In this document: positions 13,718 to 21,500 of the stretch, in pieces
How positions within the stretch are numbered: the stretch's first letter is position 1
How the letters are laid out: the number at the start of each line of letters is the position of its first letter
DNA from: an uncultured Caldisericota bacterium
GTDB lineage: Bacteria; Caldisericota; Caldisericia; B22-G15
NCBI GenBank assembly: GCA_964640995.1
Contig: CAZXJJ010000003.1
Location: 75,272-139,271, forward strand
Length of the DNA: 64,000 nucleotides
Direction: 5' to 3'
Made by a program: the position numbers and the translations under genes
Notes under the pieces: model-generated
Told to the model about the DNA's origin: nothing
Database searches by the model: none
What the model saw: the letters and a program-made list of their open reading frames with translations, nothing else

Positions 13718-14854
13718 TTAATATTCTTCTTTACCTCTTTGGGCTACTTTTGATTCTTCTCCTTTAAAATCTTTATATTTTAAGTACCAATTTTCTCCTT
13801 CATCTTCAATTTTTATATTTGCAAAACTCTGAAAATATGGATGTTCAAAGAAAGGAACTGCTTTAACTGATGCATCAACAAGTTTATAATATCTTTCAAC
13901 ACCAGTTGTTTTAAGCCACAAACTCATACTTGAAGCATCAGGGAAAAATTTTGTGAATTCTTTCCAAACTGCTCTTCCTGCAAGAAATCCATTTGCGCGT
14001 GACTCACTTGCAATTTCAACATTAATTAGAAATTCTTCAATATCAACTCCAGCAGATAAAATAACCCAAGGAATTCTTGAAGTTTCTGTAATTGATTCAC
14101 AAAATTCATAAGCATCATCTAATGTAAAAACAGCATCTCTTTCTTTTCCATCAAATGCGCCCCAGGAAAAATCATCAACAAATTTTAAATCAACTGGAAA
14201 TTCAAGTTTTAAAATATCGACACCATATTCCTCTTTTGAAAACTCTTCGACTGTTTTTAAAACTATTTCTGGCTTTTTTCTTATAAAGTTTGTCTCATTT
14301 TCAACTTCATCATCTTTTAATGGATAACTCATCGGTTCAAGTACAAATGGAAAATCTAATCTTTTTGCCTCACTTCCTACCATTCTTACAATATTTTCTT
14401 GATGTTCTTTGATTTCAGGAGAGGAGTCTGGTCTGTAATATAAAAGAAGTTTAACAGCATCTGCTCCTGCTCTTTTAATTTTTTCAACACTCCAACCCTC
14501 AAGAATAGGAGTTAATTTTTCTCTATTTTTATAACCGCCATCTTTTGTTCCACTCTCTTCGATTGCAAGTAGAAGAGCTGAATCTCTATCAAGAAATCTA
14601 ATTCCTTCTGGAAGTCCATATTGAGGATCAGTTAAAGTTGCAGAAAAGAGTGGAGAGAGATATTCAATAACTAATTTTTTTGCGAGAGCCATATCTTCAT
14701 ACTTTATCTCTTTTGAATCTTTATTAATTGTCTTTGATAACATTTTTCTTAAAGAACCTCTCTGGTCTATTGCAAGCATCCTAAATCTTCCAGTGTCATC
14801 TGCCAGTCTTTTTAAACCTTTAAATTTACCTGGAGTTAATAATCTTTTTTCCAT
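13718..14854 (-). CDS. lacD: Tagatose-1,6-bisphosphate aldolase (LacD/class I aldolase family)
   Basis: MLAIDQRGSL, GADAVKLLLYYRPD, GVDILKLEFPV, PWVILSAGV and GFLAGRAVW motifs; the true substrate could be another ketose phosphate. Confidence 0.85.
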   Translation of the reverse strand: MEKRLLTPGKFKGLKRLADDTGRFRMLAIDQRGSLRKMLSKTINKDSKEIKYEDMALAKKLVIEYLSPLFSATLTDPQYGLPEGIRFLDRDSALLLAIEESGTKDGGYKNREKLTPILEGWSVEKIKRAGADAVKLLLYYRPDSSPEIKEHQENIVRMVGSEAKRLDFPFVLEPMSYPLKDDEVENETNFIRKKPEIVLKTVEEFSKEEYGVDILKLEFPVDLKFVDDFSWGAFDGKERDAVFTLDDAYEFCESITETSRIPWVILSAGVDIEEFLINVEIASESRANGFLAGRAVWKEFTKFFPDASSMSLWLKTTGVERYYKLVDASVKAVPFFEHPYFQSFANIKIEDEGENWYLKYKDFKGEESKVAQRGKEEY

Positions 14855-14877
14855 GAGTTTATCCTCCTTTTAATTTA

Positions 14878-15477
14878 TTATATCTTAAAAGAACTCATAT
14901 TTTCTCTTCCAAGTTCAAAAGAAATTTTGTTTAATTCTAAACTTTTCCCTTTAAAATTATTTTCTAAAACCTTATAAAAATTTTCCAAATTGAAATTTAG
15001 AGGGTTTAAATAAGAAAAAACACCAAACATGAAAGAGTTTAATGTATAAGCAATATTTTTTTCTTCTAAAATTTCAGTTCCATTTAAAATGAAAACTTTT
15101 TCTGCAATCTCTTTTAAAGATTCATAAATTTTTTCTCTATCTGGATATGATGAAATTCCTAAAGATACAGTAAAAGGTATAATCTCATAATCATTAATTA
15201 AAATAATTGAATTCTTTTTAATTTTATGAAGATATCTTAAAACTTCTGAAGGCTCTAATGAAATTAAAAGGTCTCCTTCTCCGTCTTCAAAAATTGGACT
15301 CAAAACATTCCCAATTCTTACTTCAGAAAAAACTGAACCACCTCTTTGAGCCATACCATGAATTTCACTCATTAATGCATTTTTATTTTCAAGAAGTGCT
15401 ACCTCACAAATCATTTCAGCAAGTTTTAAAACTCCTTGCCCACCTACTCCAACAATTAAAATATTATATTCATTCAT
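14878..15477 (-). CDS. iorB: Indolepyruvate:ferredoxin oxidoreductase beta subunit
   Basis: GVGGQGVL, SEIHGMAQRGGSVFSEVRIG; adjacent to iorA. Confidence 0.93.
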   Translation of the reverse strand: MNEYNILIVGVGGQGVLKLAEMICEVALLENKNALMSEIHGMAQRGGSVFSEVRIGNVLSPIFEDGEGDLLISLEPSEVLRYLHKIKKNSIILINDYEIIPFTVSLGISSYPDREKIYESLKEIAEKVFILNGTEILEEKNIAYTLNSFMFGVFSYLNPLNFNLENFYKVLENNFKGKSLELNKISFELGRENMSSFKI

Positions 15478-17336
15478 TTTTTCACCTCTATTGCTTCAAA
15501 TGGACAAACTTCACTACAAACACCGCATCCATCACACAAAACTTCATTAATTTTAATTTTTTTATCTTCATCGACATAAATTGCAGGACAGGAAAATTGT
15601 CTTACACAGATTAAACACTTCTTGCATTTTTCTTCATTAACAAAATATTTAACTAAAATTCCTTCTTTTCTCATTCTGTCATCTCTAATCAATGCACACT
15701 CTCTTCTTGCGATTATAACTTTAACTCCATCCTCCTTTAATGCTTCTTCAATAACTTCCATTGTTTGAGGTAAATTATATGGATCAACAACTTTTACAAA
15801 TTTAATTCCAATTCCTTTTACTAAATCTTCTATTTTAACTTTCTGTGAAACTTCACCCATTCCATCAACTCCCATTCCAGGATTTGGCTGATGGCCTGTC
15901 ATTGCAGTAGTTTCATTATCAAGAATAATAAGAAGAAAGTTATCTTTGTTATAGAAACCATTTATTAATGGTGGAATTCCTGCATGGAAAAAGGTTGAAT
16001 CACCAATAAATGCAATCACTTTTTGTTCTGTTGATTTTGATAAGCCACAAGCAACACCAACAGAACTTCCCATAGAATAACATGTATCAGCCATATCAAA
16101 TGGTTTTCCAATTCCAAGAGTATAACACCCTATATCAGAAGGAAATATTGCATCTTTAATTTTTAATTTTCTTAATACTTTAAAGAGAGCATAATATGTT
16201 GCTCTATGAGGACAACCTGGACACAAAATAGGAGGTCTTAGTGGAGGATTTATATTTTCTATTTTAAAAATTTTTCTCTCACTCTCTTTACCTAAAAAAT
16301 TAAATAAAAAATTTTTTACTCTATCTGGTGTATATTCATAAAGATTTGTAAAAAATTTATCATCTTTACCAAAAATTTTTGTATTAAGACCCATTTTTTC
16401 TTTTAAAATTCTAACTTCATTTTCTAAAACTGGTTCAAGTTCTTCAACTACAATAATACCTTCATAATTTTCTATAAATTCTTTAACTTTCTTCTCCGGA
16501 AAAGGGTTTGAAAATCCAATAGATAAGATATCGAATGGAAGATTATATTTTTTAACTATATCAATAACATGATTTGAAGAGATGCCTGAAGTAACTATTC
16601 CATAATTTCCATTATTTTTAAATATTAAGTTGAAGGGTGAATTTTCTACTTCATCTTTAATTTTTTGGATTTTTTCAATTAAATTTTTATGTAAAACTCT
16701 TGCATTTGCTGGTATTGGAACAAATCTTCCAGGGTTTTTATTAAAATAAGTGTTTCTTTGTAACTTTTCGATCTCTCCAAGCTCAACAATGCCTCTCATG
16801 TGTGATAATCTTGTAGTTGATCTTATAAAAACAGGTATTTCGTATTTTTCTGATATTAAAAAACCATATTTCACCATAACTCTTCCCTCATCTGGATTTC
16901 TCGGTTCAAGAATTGGTAATCCTGCAAATTTTCCAAGAATTCTATTATCCTGTTCATTTTGAGATGAAAACATACTTGGGTCATCACATGAAATAATTAC
17001 AAAACCACCTATTGTTCCAAGATAACCTGAACTCATGAAAGAATCCATAGCAACATTAAGGCCTACATGTTTAAAGAAAGTCATACTTCTTAAACCAGAT
17101 AGAGCAGATGATGCAGCAACCTCAAAGGCAACTTTTTCATTTACAGAAAATTCAAAATAAATTCCAGCATCTTTTGCAATTTTACTAAGAACATTACCTA
17201 TCTCAGATGAAGGTGTTCCAGGATATGTTGCTGCGAGTTTCCCACCTCCTTCAATAAAACCTCTTGCAAATGCTTCATTACCAAGAAGAAAGACCTTCTT
17301 ACCCACTTCACTTGAAATAATTTCATTTAATTTCAT
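15474..17336 (-). CDS. iorA: Indolepyruvate:ferredoxin oxidoreductase alpha subunit
   Basis: LLGNEAFARG, YPGTPSSEI, SVNEKVAFE, KHVGLNVA, LCPGCPHR, GDSTFFHAG; two C-terminal 4Fe-4S motifs. Confidence 0.96.
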   Translation of the reverse strand: MKLNEIISSEVGKKVFLLGNEAFARGFIEGGGKLAATYPGTPSSEIGNVLSKIAKDAGIYFEFSVNEKVAFEVAASSALSGLRSMTFFKHVGLNVAMDSFMSSGYLGTIGGFVIISCDDPSMFSSQNEQDNRILGKFAGLPILEPRNPDEGRVMVKYGFLISEKYEIPVFIRSTTRLSHMRGIVELGEIEKLQRNTYFNKNPGRFVPIPANARVLHKNLIEKIQKIKDEVENSPFNLIFKNNGNYGIVTSGISSNHVIDIVKKYNLPFDILSIGFSNPFPEKKVKEFIENYEGIIVVEELEPVLENEVRILKEKMGLNTKIFGKDDKFFTNLYEYTPDRVKNFLFNFLGKESERKIFKIENINPPLRPPILCPGCPHRATYYALFKVLRKLKIKDAIFPSDIGCYTLGIGKPFDMADTCYSMGSSVGVACGLSKSTEQKVIAFIGDSTFFHAGIPPLINGFYNKDNFLLIILDNETTAMTGHQPNPGMGVDGMGEVSQKVKIEDLVKGIGIKFVKVVDPYNLPQTMEVIEEALKEDGVKVIIARRECALIRDDRMRKEGILVKYFVNEEKCKKCLICVRQFSCPAIYVDEDKKIKINEVLCDGCGVCSEVCPFEAIEVKK

Positions 17337-17344
17337 ATATCCTC

Positions 17345-18580
17345 CTATGGAATAAAATGCAATGGAATATTAAAAATTTTTCCATTTAAATCTTGAACTA
17401 ATAAATTTTTATAATCAATAATTTTTTTTCCATAAACTCTCTTTTCTTCTCCATTCGAATTAATAATAAATGGCTCTTCAAAAATTTTAAAATTTCTTTC
17501 TAAATCAGAAATTATATGATCTAAATTTTCATTTTCATAATATATTAAATTTCTCTTTAACTCACTTAAAAAAAGTGATAAAATCTCATCAAGAAACAAA
17601 AATTTTTCAGTTTCAATATATAGTGATGTAGTTTTATTTATCAATTCATCTGGAAAATCGCTCTTACTTTGATTTACATTTAATCCAACACCAATAATTT
17701 CGCCAGCGAGTTTTTCTTCTTTGAAATATCCCTCTGAAATAACCCCACAAATTTTTTTGTTATTTAAATATAAATCATTTGGAATTTTTATCTTTAAATC
17801 TAATAAACCTAATTTTTTTAAAACATTTGCCATTGAATAGGTGACAAGAATCGGTAAAAAATAAATATAATTAAATGGTTTTAATGAAAAAGAAAAATAT
17901 AATCCACCTTTTTCTGAAAACCAGTATGAACCTTTTCTTCCCCTTCCTTTTGTTTGAATTTTAGAGAGCACAAGTTTATTTAAAGAAAAGTTCTCTTTTA
18001 AATAATCTTGAGTTGATGAAATTTCATCAAATATTTCTATTTCATAATCTTTTTCATTGATAATATTTATGTTTAAATCGCTATAAATCTCTCTTAAAAA
18101 ATTTTCACTATCAATTTTTTTGACACTTCTTTTATCAACATTATAGTAAATATCTTCTATTTTTCTTTTACTTTTTGGATTTATTATGTATTTATTTATT
18201 TCAAACAAAGGAACTACAACAAAACCTCTCTCTTCAAAAAACTTATGTGGTACTATTAAATTTTCTTTTTCAATTATTTTATCTCCATATAAAATTATAT
18301 CTATATCAATCTCTCTTGGACCCCACTTGAAACTTTCTCCTCTTCCAACCTTTTTCTCAACATGTTTTATAAATTTAATCAGATCATCTGGATCCTCTTC
18401 ACTTTCTCCTTGAATAACGATGTTTAAAAAATTATCCTGATCTTTGTATCCCCATGGTTCTGTTTCATAAAGAGAGGAAATTTTATTGATTTTTATTTTT
18501 TCTCTTAAATAAAAAATAGCCTTCTTTAAAAAATCCTCTCTTGGTTCAATATTACTTCCAAAGGATAAAAATAATTCCAT
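17345..18580 (-). CDS. Fusion of FolK (HPPK) and biotin-protein ligase (BirA catalytic domain, no HTH)
   Basis: About residues 1-160: SFGSNI, SSLYETEPWG, WGPREIDIDI, VPH (FolK). C-half: SSTQD, QTKGRGRKG, PNDLY..KKICGV, GVGLNV (BPL). One continuous ORF. Confidence 0.9.
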   Translation of the reverse strand: MELFLSFGSNIEPREDFLKKAIFYLREKIKINKISSLYETEPWGYKDQDNFLNIVIQGESEEDPDDLIKFIKHVEKKVGRGESFKWGPREIDIDIILYGDKIIEKENLIVPHKFFEERGFVVVPLFEINKYIINPKSKRKIEDIYYNVDKRSVKKIDSENFLREIYSDLNINIINEKDYEIEIFDEISSTQDYLKENFSLNKLVLSKIQTKGRGRKGSYWFSEKGGLYFSFSLKPFNYIYFLPILVTYSMANVLKKLGLLDLKIKIPNDLYLNNKKICGVISEGYFKEEKLAGEIIGVGLNVNQSKSDFPDELINKTTSLYIETEKFLFLDEILSLFLSELKRNLIYYENENLDHIISDLERNFKIFEEPFIINSNGEEKRVYGKKIIDYKNLLVQDLNGKIFNIPLHFIP

Positions 18581-19492
18581 TTAAATTTCTCTTAAGACAA
18601 TCTCTTTTTCAACTTCAACTATGTTTTTAGGTTTTTCGATTTTATCAATAGTGCTTTTTGTAGAAATATAGAAAGCATATTTTAAACTATCAAAGAAATT
18701 TATTCCTTCATCAAGGTAATATGACAATGAAGCAATAAAAGTATCTTTAATTACTTCATATGGAACATCTTTTAATAAATCTTTTGAAAGAAGATTGAAA
18801 AATTTATCTTCATAATTAAAAATTATGTTTCCCTTATCAACAGTAATTATAAAATATTCTGGTTTTGAATCATTATAACTCTTAAATCTTTTGATAAGAG
18901 AGACAAGATTTGAACCAGAGAGAAAATCAAAATCTTCTTTATCAATTCTTGCAATGTACGGTTCTGCTCTTAAGCCTTCTCTAAGCATTTCTCCTTTTGC
19001 ATCAAAAATTACCAATTTATCTTTATCTTTAGAAATTTGGATCAAATGTTTAAAAATATCTTTGCATATTCCATTAGGGGCTCCATCGGTAAGCAAAATT
19101 ATGTCAAAATTTTTAACTTTTTCTCTAAATTTATCTTCAAAATTTTTTATATCAACGGGTGCAATTACAGGATCTTTTTCATAAAAATCTGTTTCAACTC
19201 CTCTTTCATCAAAAATTTCAAGATGAACTGGATTTTCTTCATCTGAAAATATAAAATCGAAATCAATCTTCTCATTTTCAAGTGAATCTTTTATAAACTC
19301 ACCATTTTTTCCACCAATTATACTTAAAACACTAACATTTCCACCAAGTTTTTTAATGTATCTTGCGGCATTGATTCCTCTTCCCCCTGGTTTTTTACTA
19401 AAAATTTCTAATTGATTTTTTCCTCCTAATTGAAATCTTTTAAGGTTTGCTTTTTCTTCAACAAAAGGATTTAAAATAACAGATAATATCAT
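18581..19492 (-). CDS. 1-phosphofructokinase/LacC-like PfkB family protein with degenerate motifs
   Basis: LNP..GGRGINAAR..IGGKNGEFI N-terminus and IFDAKG are PfkB-like; the C-terminal GAGD signature reads VIKD. Confidence 0.75.
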   Translation of the reverse strand: MILSVILNPFVEEKANLKRFQLGGKNQLEIFSKKPGGRGINAARYIKKLGGNVSVLSIIGGKNGEFIKDSLENEKIDFDFIFSDEENPVHLEIFDERGVETDFYEKDPVIAPVDIKNFEDKFREKVKNFDIILLTDGAPNGICKDIFKHLIQISKDKDKLVIFDAKGEMLREGLRAEPYIARIDKEDFDFLSGSNLVSLIKRFKSYNDSKPEYFIITVDKGNIIFNYEDKFFNLLSKDLLKDVPYEVIKDTFIASLSYYLDEGINFFDSLKYAFYISTKSTIDKIEKPKNIVEVEKEIVLREI

Positions 19493-19496
19493 AGCA

Positions 19497-21500
19497 TCAT
19501 CTCTCCTTTTTGATTAGTGTTCTTAATTTTTTCTTTAACTCAATAATTTTGTCTCTAATTTTTGCTGCTTCTTCAAATTCGAGTGTTTCTGCTTTAAGAT
19601 ACATCTCTTCTTCTAGTTGAGTAATAAGAGATTCTATATACTCTAAACTCATATATTTTTCACTCTCTTTTACAAAACTCTCAATTTCTTCTTTTTCTTT
19701 ATATGGTAAATCAATTAATTCTTTAACTGCTTTCTTTACAGTTTCAGGTTTAATACCATGCTTTAAGTTATATTCCATCTGAACTTTTCTTCTTCTATTT
19801 GTCTCATCAATTGCTTTTTTCATTGATTCAGTTAATTCATTTGCATACATTATCACTTTACCACTAACATTTCTTGCTGCTCTTCCAATAATTTGGATTA
19901 AAGAAGTGTGTGACCTTAAAAATCCTTCTTTATCAGCATCTAAAATTGCAACAAGAGAAACTTCTGGAAGATCTAACCCCTCTCTTAAAAGATTTATTCC
20001 AACAAGACAATCAAACTCTCCTTTTCTGAGATCCCTAATAATTTCTGCTCTTTTAATTGTATCTATATCAGCATGAAGATATCTAACCCTTATTCCTCTT
20101 TCATAAAGATATATCGCAAGGTCTTCTGCAACTCTTTTTGTTAGAGTTGTAACCAAAACTCTTTCATTTCTTTTAACTCTCTCATTAATTTCTTTTATTA
20201 AATCTTCAATTTGATTTGCACATTTCCTAACTTCAACCTCAGGGTCAATTAAACCTGTAGGTCTTATGAGTTGTTCAACAACCAGATCTGAAATTGAAAG
20301 TTCATAATCTGATGGAGTTGCAGAAACAAAAATAATTTGATTTGCCTTTTCTAAAAACTCTTCATATTTTAGAGGTCTATTATCAAGACAAGAGGGTAAT
20401 CTAAATCCATACTCAACAAGTGTTTCTTTTCTTGATCTGTCTCCATTGTACATTCCTCTTAATTGAGGGACTGCAATGTGTGACTCATCAATAAAGATTA
20501 AAAAGTCAGATGGAAAATAATCAATTATTGTATATGGAGGTTCACCTGGTTTTCTTCCTGAAAGATGCCTTGTGTAATTTTCTATTCCTTTAACATAGCC
20601 TGTTTCAAGTAGCATCTCAATATCAAAATTTGTTCTTTGAGTTAATCTTTCTGCTTCAAGATATTTGCCTTGTGATAAGAAATATTCAACTCTTTCTTTC
20701 AACTCCTTTTTAATACTCTCAACTGCTTTTAAAATTCTCTCTTCTGTTGTTAAAAATTGTTTTGCTGGAAAGAAAATAAAACTTGGAAGTTCCTCAATTT
20801 TTGTAGAAAGAAGTGGATCAATAAGGTAAATTTTATCGATAGTGTCTCCAAAAAATTCTATTCTTACTGCATAATCTGTATCTATTGGATATATGTCAAG
20901 AATATCTCCTCTTGCCCTAATTTTCCCTCTTGAAAAATCTATGTCATTTCTTTCATATTGAAGCATAACTAAATTTTTAATAAGTTCTTTCCTTGAAATA
21001 TTATCTCCAACCTTAACTTCAATTAAACCTTTCAGAAATTCTGTTGGGTCATCCCATCCATATATGCATGAAACAGAAGAAACAACAATTGTATCTCTTC
21101 TTTCCATTAAACTTCTTAAAGTTTTGTGTCTCAATTTTACAAGGTCTTCATTTATATCAGCATCTTTTTCAATATAAAGGTCGCTTTGAGGAACATATGC
21201 TTCCGGCTGATAGTAATCATAATAACTTACAAAATATTCAACTCTATTATGAGGAAAAAGGTCTCTAAATTCAGAATAAAGTTGTGCTGCAAGGGTTTTA
21301 TTATGACAAATAATTAGAGTTGGTTTGTTAACCTGTGCTATAACATTTGCCATTGTATATGTTTTTCCAGAACCTGTGACTCCAATAAGGGTTTGAAACC
21401 TGAAACCTTTCTTTACTCCTTCAACTAACTTTTCTATTGCCTGAGGTTGGTCACCTTTCGGTTTATATTGAGAAATAAGTTTAAAGTTATCTTCACTCAT
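19497..21500 (-). CDS. uvrB: Excinuclease ABC subunit B
   Basis: [51 protein letters not shown]; C-terminal UVR domain. Confidence 0.99.

Follow-up and report, generated by a model that had tools for sequence, protein, structure and literature searches.

A conserved HPPK-BirA fusion in one family of Caldisericia, probably a bifunctional FolK/BirA enzyme

Within the window – the whole stretch of 64,000 nucleotides that we analysed, taken from an uncultured Caldisericota bacterium – one uninterrupted ORF on the minus strand (17345-18580), 411 aa from ATG to TAG, joins the folate enzyme HPPK (FolK) to a class I biotin protein ligase (BPL, BirA). This HPPK-BirA fusion is conserved and apparently undescribed. 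We consider it probable that folK::birA is a bifunctional housekeeping FolK/BirA whose two active sites work independently and which is fixed in a single family of Caldisericia; both the activities and their independence are what we infer. The gene, its parts and its immediate neighbours are as follows.

17345..18580, minus strand: the whole folK::birA ORF, 411 aa plus TAG (family models above curated cut-offs; AF2 model)
18110..18580, minus strand: HPPK (FolK) domain, aa 1-157 (PF01288, TIGR01498, structural superposition)
18044..18109, minus strand: structured connector, aa 158-179, helix 159-167 plus loop (DSSP on the model, pLDDT 88-95)
17516..18043, minus strand: biotin protein ligase catalytic domain, aa 180-355 (TIGR00121, PF03099, HMMER alignment to the A. 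aeolicus BPL)
17345..17515, minus strand: BPL C-terminal beta-domain (SH3-like), aa 356-411 plus stop (model, strands 371-406)
18581..19492, minus strand: pfkB-family sugar kinase, upstream of folK::birA, its TAA stop abutting the ATG of the fusion
15474..17336, minus strand: iorA (indolepyruvate:ferredoxin oxidoreductase alpha), downstream of folK::birA, starting 8 nt past the stop of the fusion

A preliminary description of this DNA had placed HPPK and a biotin-ligase domain in one 411-aa frame, which is confirmed by the ORF list, its translation and the Pfam and NCBIfam matches; the strand, absent from that description, comes from the ORF analysis. A translation scan of folK::birA detected no stop, frameshift or internal Met at the domain junction. 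Indeed, the next Met past Met1 lies at ~aa 250, and with none near the junction, no ordinary ATG start is available from which the ligase half could be translated on its own. The ribosome-binding site of iorA (GGAGGA) overlaps the TAG stop of the fusion. The wider locus, window 13718-21500 (minus strand), is a tightly packed, co-directional run of uvrB, the pfkB/LacC-like kinase, folK::birA, iorA, iorB and a tagatose-bisphosphate-aldolase-like gene, with unrelated genes standing between kinase and aldolase; this order is kept in two sister genomes (G007 and G008).

The HPPK half is matched by Pfam HPPK (PF01288) over aa 4-129 (117.4 bits, cut-off 25.7) and by NCBIfam TIGR01498 folK (132.8 bits, cut-off 54.1). 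In the structural model it shows the full alpha-beta-alpha HPPK fold (Foldseek TM 0.93), and residues 1-156/158 fit whole HPPK chains from S. aureus, B. anthracis and E. coli with Z 24-27 and rmsd 1.1-1.5 Å. Invariant in all 55 close fused homologues are G8-S9-N10, Y38-E-T-E-P-W-G44, N53, R80, W86-G-P-R89, D92, D94, H112, R118 and F120. Among these are the equivalents of the Mg/ATP- and pterin-binding residues (T40, N53, R80, W86, R89, D92, D94, H112, R118 and F120), which we take to be the counterparts of T42, N55, R82, W89, R92, D95, D97, H115, R121 and F123 in E. coli HPPK; all of them except W86 are also invariant in a 37-sequence alignment that takes in distant fusions. Stand-alone HPPK/FolK enzymes (EC 2.7.6.3; S. 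aureus 4crj and 5etq, B. anthracis 8sk1, E. coli 1hq2) have the same full-length fold at 30-45% identity, and their signature residues are all kept in the fusion, which differs by ~250 extra C-terminal residues – the biotin ligase – and by a gene that lies outside the folate operon. Among members of the genus, dN/dS for this half is 0.07-0.09, a rough ratio given a dS of ~1. As the sole HPPK of a genome that also carries folE, folB, folP and folC, it would be an active pyrophosphokinase on 6-hydroxymethyl-7,8-dihydropterin.

The ligase half is matched by Pfam BPL_LplA_LipB (PF03099) over aa 186-301 (62.7 bits, cut-off 21) and by NCBIfam TIGR00121 birA_ligase (140.8 bits, cut-off 83.1). The LplA/LipB branch of PF03099 was considered and rejected, with LplA-B_cat reaching only 14.2 bits against a cut-off of 27 and the LplA of the genome being a separate ORF. 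Pfam BPL_C does not match the C-terminal domain; nonetheless, model residues 171/178-411 fit whole class I BPLs right to the C-terminus (residues 1-231 in P. horikoshii and 2-229 in A. aeolicus; Z ~26, rmsd 2.4-2.8 Å), so the C-terminal beta-domain is included. More broadly, class I BPLs from Aquifex aeolicus (3efs), Pyrococcus horikoshii (1wnl, 2ejf) and M. tuberculosis (4xtv) align with the fusion end to end (Z ~26-27), and share with it the catalytic Lys, the GxGxN motif (here G297-V-G-L-N301) and the lack of a DNA-binding domain. They differ from it in having no N-terminal HPPK, and in reading GRGRxGRxW where the fusion has GRGRKG[S/A/N]xW, and KWPND where it has KIPND.

No HTH_11, HTH_24 or other HTH family of Pfam or NCBIfam matches folK::birA, whose N-terminus is HPPK; the absence of the repressor HTH, proposed in the preliminary description, is thereby borne out, and with no winged helix-turn-helix the ligase is not a class II BirA. 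That FolK had taken the place of the HTH is a different matter, and this part of the description does not stand. Across Caldisericota, unfused BirAs are of class I and short, at ~184-317 aa from stop to stop, and never had an HTH, so HPPK did not replace one; moreover, some Bacillota-type fusions keep their HTH behind HPPK.

The same description had noted KIPND in place of the usual KWPND, and K265-I-P-N-D269 (nt 17774-17788) is indeed what the translation reads. K265, P267, N268 and D269 are invariant in the fused homologues, and the Trp is replaced by Ile in 54 of 55. The biotin-binding loop, GRGRKGSYW (aa 212-220, nt 17921-17947), keeps G212, G214, R215 and W220 of GRGRxGRxW, with the third Arg replaced by S, A or N across the Caldisericia fusion clade; in some fused members the loop reads GRGRKNN or GHGRKNN. 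The ligase signatures – STQ, Q209, G212, G214, R215, W220, GGL, K265, PND, K276, G279, E283 and GxG – are invariant in the 55 close fusions, and most of the ligase and HPPK signatures are still invariant once distant fusions are added (37 sequences). The ligase half has a dN/dS of 0.16-0.20 among genus members, again a rough ratio at a dS of ~1. With the third Arg absent and Trp changed to Ile, the kinetics of the ligase may differ. We rejected the idea that either change is an effect of the fusion: in other Caldisericota families, the loop of unfused BirAs reads GYGRKGAFW or GRGRNGNIW and the motif KYPND or KEPND, whereas the distant fusions all have KWPND. Judging from these sequences, KIPND and the lack of the third Arg are the norm in this phylum and owe nothing to the fusion.

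How the two halves sit together can be approached through the AF2 model, which has a mean pLDDT of 94.2 and a pTM of 0.91 (alignment of 37 fused homologues). The connector, ~12-20 residues long by structural boundaries, is ordered in the model and conserved in the Caldisericia clade as a VKKI[ED]...F.K.V[YF]SE.N.NL block that begins at ~aa 152, in the C-terminal tail of HPPK; between fused groups, its sequence and length are unrelated. The two domains are predicted to pack rigidly via this conserved connector, and the fusion may also stabilise the protein. Together, the pTM and the clade-conserved connector hint at something more than beads on a string. For a Bacillota-type fusion, the model gave a pTM of 0.58 and a disordered linker, a contrast that is suggestive only, being confounded by alignment depth (15 sequences only, against 37). 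A structure comparison found no solved chain spanning both halves.

Each half has a pathway to serve, as the rest of both pathways is present in the source genome (1.42 Mb, 22 contigs, 100% complete by marker genes). Its sole HPPK is folK::birA. It encodes two PF03099 proteins, and the second, considered as a candidate second birA, was rejected since it is an LplA-type lipoate ligase adjoining the lipoyl synthase LipS2. Further copies of folK or birA, for which the preliminary description had proposed a search, occur neither in this genome nor in the five sister genomes from the same genus. About 87 kb off, on the same contig, lies a folE-folP-folB operon that lacks folK, and folC is also present. 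On the biotin side, a BioY transporter stands beside an mmdA-oadG-BCCP-beta Na+-decarboxylase cluster, and the 136-aa carrier of this cluster (MmdC-like) is the only BCCP-type acceptor of the genome; the remaining biotin/lipoyl matches are a lipoyl E2 and an H-protein-like ORF.

From these parts, a division of labour can be proposed. The N-terminal HPPK would transfer pyrophosphate from Mg-ATP to 6-hydroxymethyl-7,8-dihydropterin, and the pterin diphosphate would then pass to the FolP encoded in the distant operon that lost folK. The C-terminal class I ligase would adenylate biotin imported by BioY, and load it onto the one BCCP-type carrier, part of a Na+-pumping methylmalonyl-CoA-decarboxylase-like complex. 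ATP is all that the two reactions would have in common, and the fusion would have been kept because both halves provide essential single-copy functions.

The fused gene is widely sampled yet narrowly distributed. A word-indexed search returned 55 clusters (90% identity) with both Pfam domains, 354-412 aa long, 46-99% identical and from many independent assemblies; their named members are Caldisericia MAGs, with one Caldisericia-like cluster member labelled Firmicutes, MAG source names being loose as taxon labels. In a set of 93 Caldisericota species genomes, only one family has the fused gene, which constitutes a clean lineage marker for that family. All six genomes of the window's genus, its own included, carry the intact 411-412-aa fusion (open frames of 411-420 aa) and no other folK or birA, and the fusion is found in all three genomes of the sister genus. 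In other Caldisericota families folK and birA are separate, with folK ORFs of 153-247 aa or fused to other partners, and birA of ~184-317 aa; in a complete Caldisericota genome of 1,558,103 bp, they lie 600 kb apart. Among unfused relatives, folK directly follows folP in two genomes (G070 and G075) and lies ~1.8 kb downstream of it in a third (G016). The most economical history places the origin of the fusion in the ancestor of one Caldisericia family, with folK moving out of the folate operon to join birA.

Some copies look broken. In the sister genus, the apparent breaks are an N-run (G002), a contig end (G003) and one short frameshift or deletion (G001); in the latter (L027:4235-5409) the ligase half shifts frame and ~25 residues are missing before the C-terminal domain. 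On another contig (L163), the fused gene is split into ORFs of 199 and 291 aa. The interruptions in G001 and L163 are either real decay or assembly errors. Separately, two other Caldisericota families (f3 and f4, about 34 genomes) have birA and almost never an HPPK, a pattern that points to folate auxotrophy or to non-orthologous replacement.

Beyond the phylum, phmmer run exhaustively against 1.84 billion representatives retrieved 18 further 50%-identity representatives with an N-terminal HPPK and a C-terminal BPL, at 24-37% full-length identity. They show two architectures, HPPK-BPL-BPL_C (~412-448 aa) and HPPK-HTH_11-BPL-BPL_C (483-524 aa), the HTH_11 being found in P0124, P0127, P0140, P0145 and P0179. 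Their source names are Bacillota/Firmicutes, Clostridia, Clostridiaceae, Peptococcaceae and Armatimonadota MAGs, and each is automatically annotated as just one of the two enzymes. The Bacillota, Clostridia and Armatimonadota fusions (for example MDI6870879.1, NLJ60147.1 and MBI4277335.1) have the same order of HPPK, BPL and C-terminal domain as the Caldisericia gene; they differ in having KWPND, a full GRGRxGRxW, unrelated and variable linkers, in some cases a class II ligase with an HTH, and, for the Bacillota-type protein, weak predicted inter-domain packing (the pTM of 0.58 from the 15-sequence alignment). Their gene contexts also differ: one distant group, on contigs of 49-51% G+C, has folP-folB-[folK::birA], a contig of 70% G+C has folE-folP-...-[folK::birA], and in all six complete distant contigs examined (50-70% G+C), the fused gene ends a folP-folB or folE-folP operon. 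This position at the end of a folP-folB operon, and the non-homologous, apparently flexible linkers, are as expected from a merger of neighbouring genes. On three metagenome contigs (L165, L166 and L202), folK and a ~340-aa birA are separate same-strand ORFs ~700 nt apart, an arrangement of unfused neighbours that may be related to the Bacillota-type fusions. Such adjacency is not general, since a BPL lies within 6 kb, and not adjacent, at only one of the best 80 HPPK loci in the species-genome collection, all of which are HPPK-only.

Did the fusion arise once or several times? In the HPPK tree as in the BPL tree, the fused proteins fall into the same three groups, with stand-alone enzymes placed between them. 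For the BPL domain, AU tests rejected neither a single clade of all fused ligases (p=0.168) nor a grouping of the Caldisericia fusion with unfused Caldisericota BirAs (p=0.35). Several independent fusion events are likely, if not proven by phylogeny, because the connectors are unrelated, the gene contexts and base composition differ and the domain trees separate the groups. That the same domain pair, in the same order, occurs in several lineages could, instead of being a coincidence, stem from selection for a functional link.

This last idea deserves to be weighed against that of two independent active sites. HPPK could be a structural or regulatory N-terminal module of the ligase, by analogy with the winged-HTH domain that organises the active site of class II BirA, or a liganded ligase could control HPPK, thereby tying folate synthesis to biotinylation demand. 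In its favour are the rigid predicted arrangement and ordered, clade-wide connector, the contrast with the looser Bacillota-type model, the recurrence of HPPK-then-BPL in at least three sequence groups, and the contigs on which folK and birA are neighbours without being fused. On the other hand, no metabolite other than ATP is common to the two pathways, class I biotin ligases work without any N-terminal domain, the ligase motif changes also occur in unfused Caldisericota BirAs and so are not adaptations to HPPK, and the pTM comparison is confounded by its 37 versus 15 sequences. On balance we think such coupling unlikely. A bolder version holds that the recurrent joining marks a real folate/biotinylation link that matured in Caldisericia into an integrated two-domain enzyme, with HPPK packing rigidly and either organising the altered biotin-binding loop or being controlled by the biotinyl-AMP/apo-BCCP state of the ligase; this, taken as a whole, we hold to be quite unlikely. 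The preliminary description had worded the fusion as linking folate synthesis and protein biotinylation, and in the sense of a chemical or regulatory link between the halves this is unproven. If coupling were true, it would represent an unrecognised cross-talk between two vitamin pathways.

Could one half instead be inactive or re-purposed, for example a ligase weakened by the loss of the third Arg and the change of Trp to Ile, with the fusion kept for its other activity? The departures from the near-universal GRGRxGRxW (GRGRKG[S/A/N]xW, GRGRKNN or GHGRKNN) and the KIPND of 54 in 55 fused homologues would fit. We nevertheless regard this as very improbable, considering that the gene is the sole birA and sole folK of a genome with both a BCCP acceptor and a FolP consumer, that both halves are under purifying selection (dN/dS 0.07-0.20), that Lys265, the Gly/Arg core of the loop, Trp220, GxGxN and the Mg/ATP/pterin residues of HPPK are invariant, and that the same substitutions are found in other Caldisericota whose only BirA is unfused. 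An artefact of assembly or frameshift that joined adjacent genes, to which the split-looking sister-genus copies might point, has a negligible chance of being correct and was rejected: 55 clusters, drawn from independent assemblies, and the six genomes of the genus share an uninterrupted frame of 408-412 aa, and the sister-genus splits come down to the N-run, the contig end and the one short frameshift or deletion. A bifunctional enzyme with two independent active sites is therefore the reading we prefer.

Both halves are textbook enzymes and drug targets, and the chemistry proposed here is not new, both enzyme types being well established. Fusion as such has precedents: BirA is joined to type III pantothenate kinase (NCBIfam NF009862), another ATP-using cofactor kinase, and HPPK occurs as FolB-HPPK, HPPK-DHPS and HPPK-GTP cyclohydrolase (FolE2-type), so that both enzymes evidently tolerate partners. 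These differ from folK::birA in partners and domain order; whereas the usual partners of HPPK belong to its own pathway, here the partner comes from an unrelated one. We found no description of an HPPK-BirA fusion in the full-text literature, the coverage of which was incomplete, or in the folate-gene comparisons PMC1971073 and PMC4224340. The domain-architecture check suggested in the preliminary description gives a matching picture: with 55 clusters and 18 distant representatives, HPPK and BPL in one ORF is neither common nor, as far as we found, characterised. To this set, the Caldisericia fusion adds a locus outside the folate operon, a strictly class I ligase, a clade-conserved structured connector and a family-level boundary.

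There is a practical side to this, as databases name each copy for only one of its enzymes, and automated metabolic reconstructions of these uncultured lineages would then wrongly score either folate synthesis or biotinylation as missing. Furthermore, these proteins provide a natural experiment on whether enzymes of unrelated pathways merge neutrally or with a hidden coupling, as they come in at least three versions of distinct sequence, the Caldisericia one compact and the Bacillota one apparently loose.

Several minor observations were made elsewhere in the genome. The LplA-type lipoate ligase (255 aa) is translationally coupled to the LipS2-family lipoyl synthase (L002, G000:C4:53756-57133) and convergent with dnaB, their 3' ends overlapping by 4 nt, and an H-protein-like lipoyl carrier lies ~4 kb from the pair. 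FolP (402 aa; L006:7492-7896, minus strand, G000:C3 ~181.5-181.9 kb, outside the window) has an N-terminal extension of ~135 aa without a Pfam or NCBIfam match; it is conserved, by tblastn, both elsewhere in Caldisericota and in the Bacillota-type folP genes of 50% G+C, and an Atlas look-up gave only 'hypothetical protein' clusters, below 0.9. On the same piece, likewise outside the window, a RarA/MgsA-type AAA ATPase (L006:4582-5761, minus strand) is encoded in two overlapping ORFs of 172 and 231 aa, a split that a frameshift, a pseudogene or a sequencing error could explain. Finally, a B12-dependent ribonucleotide reductase ORF of 1150 aa (L006:9696-13148, minus strand, also outside the window) matches, over ~aa 270-680 of nrdJ, only intein-bearing proteins (DnaB, IF-2, PolII large subunit and V-ATPase A models), which suggests that one or more inteins are inserted there.
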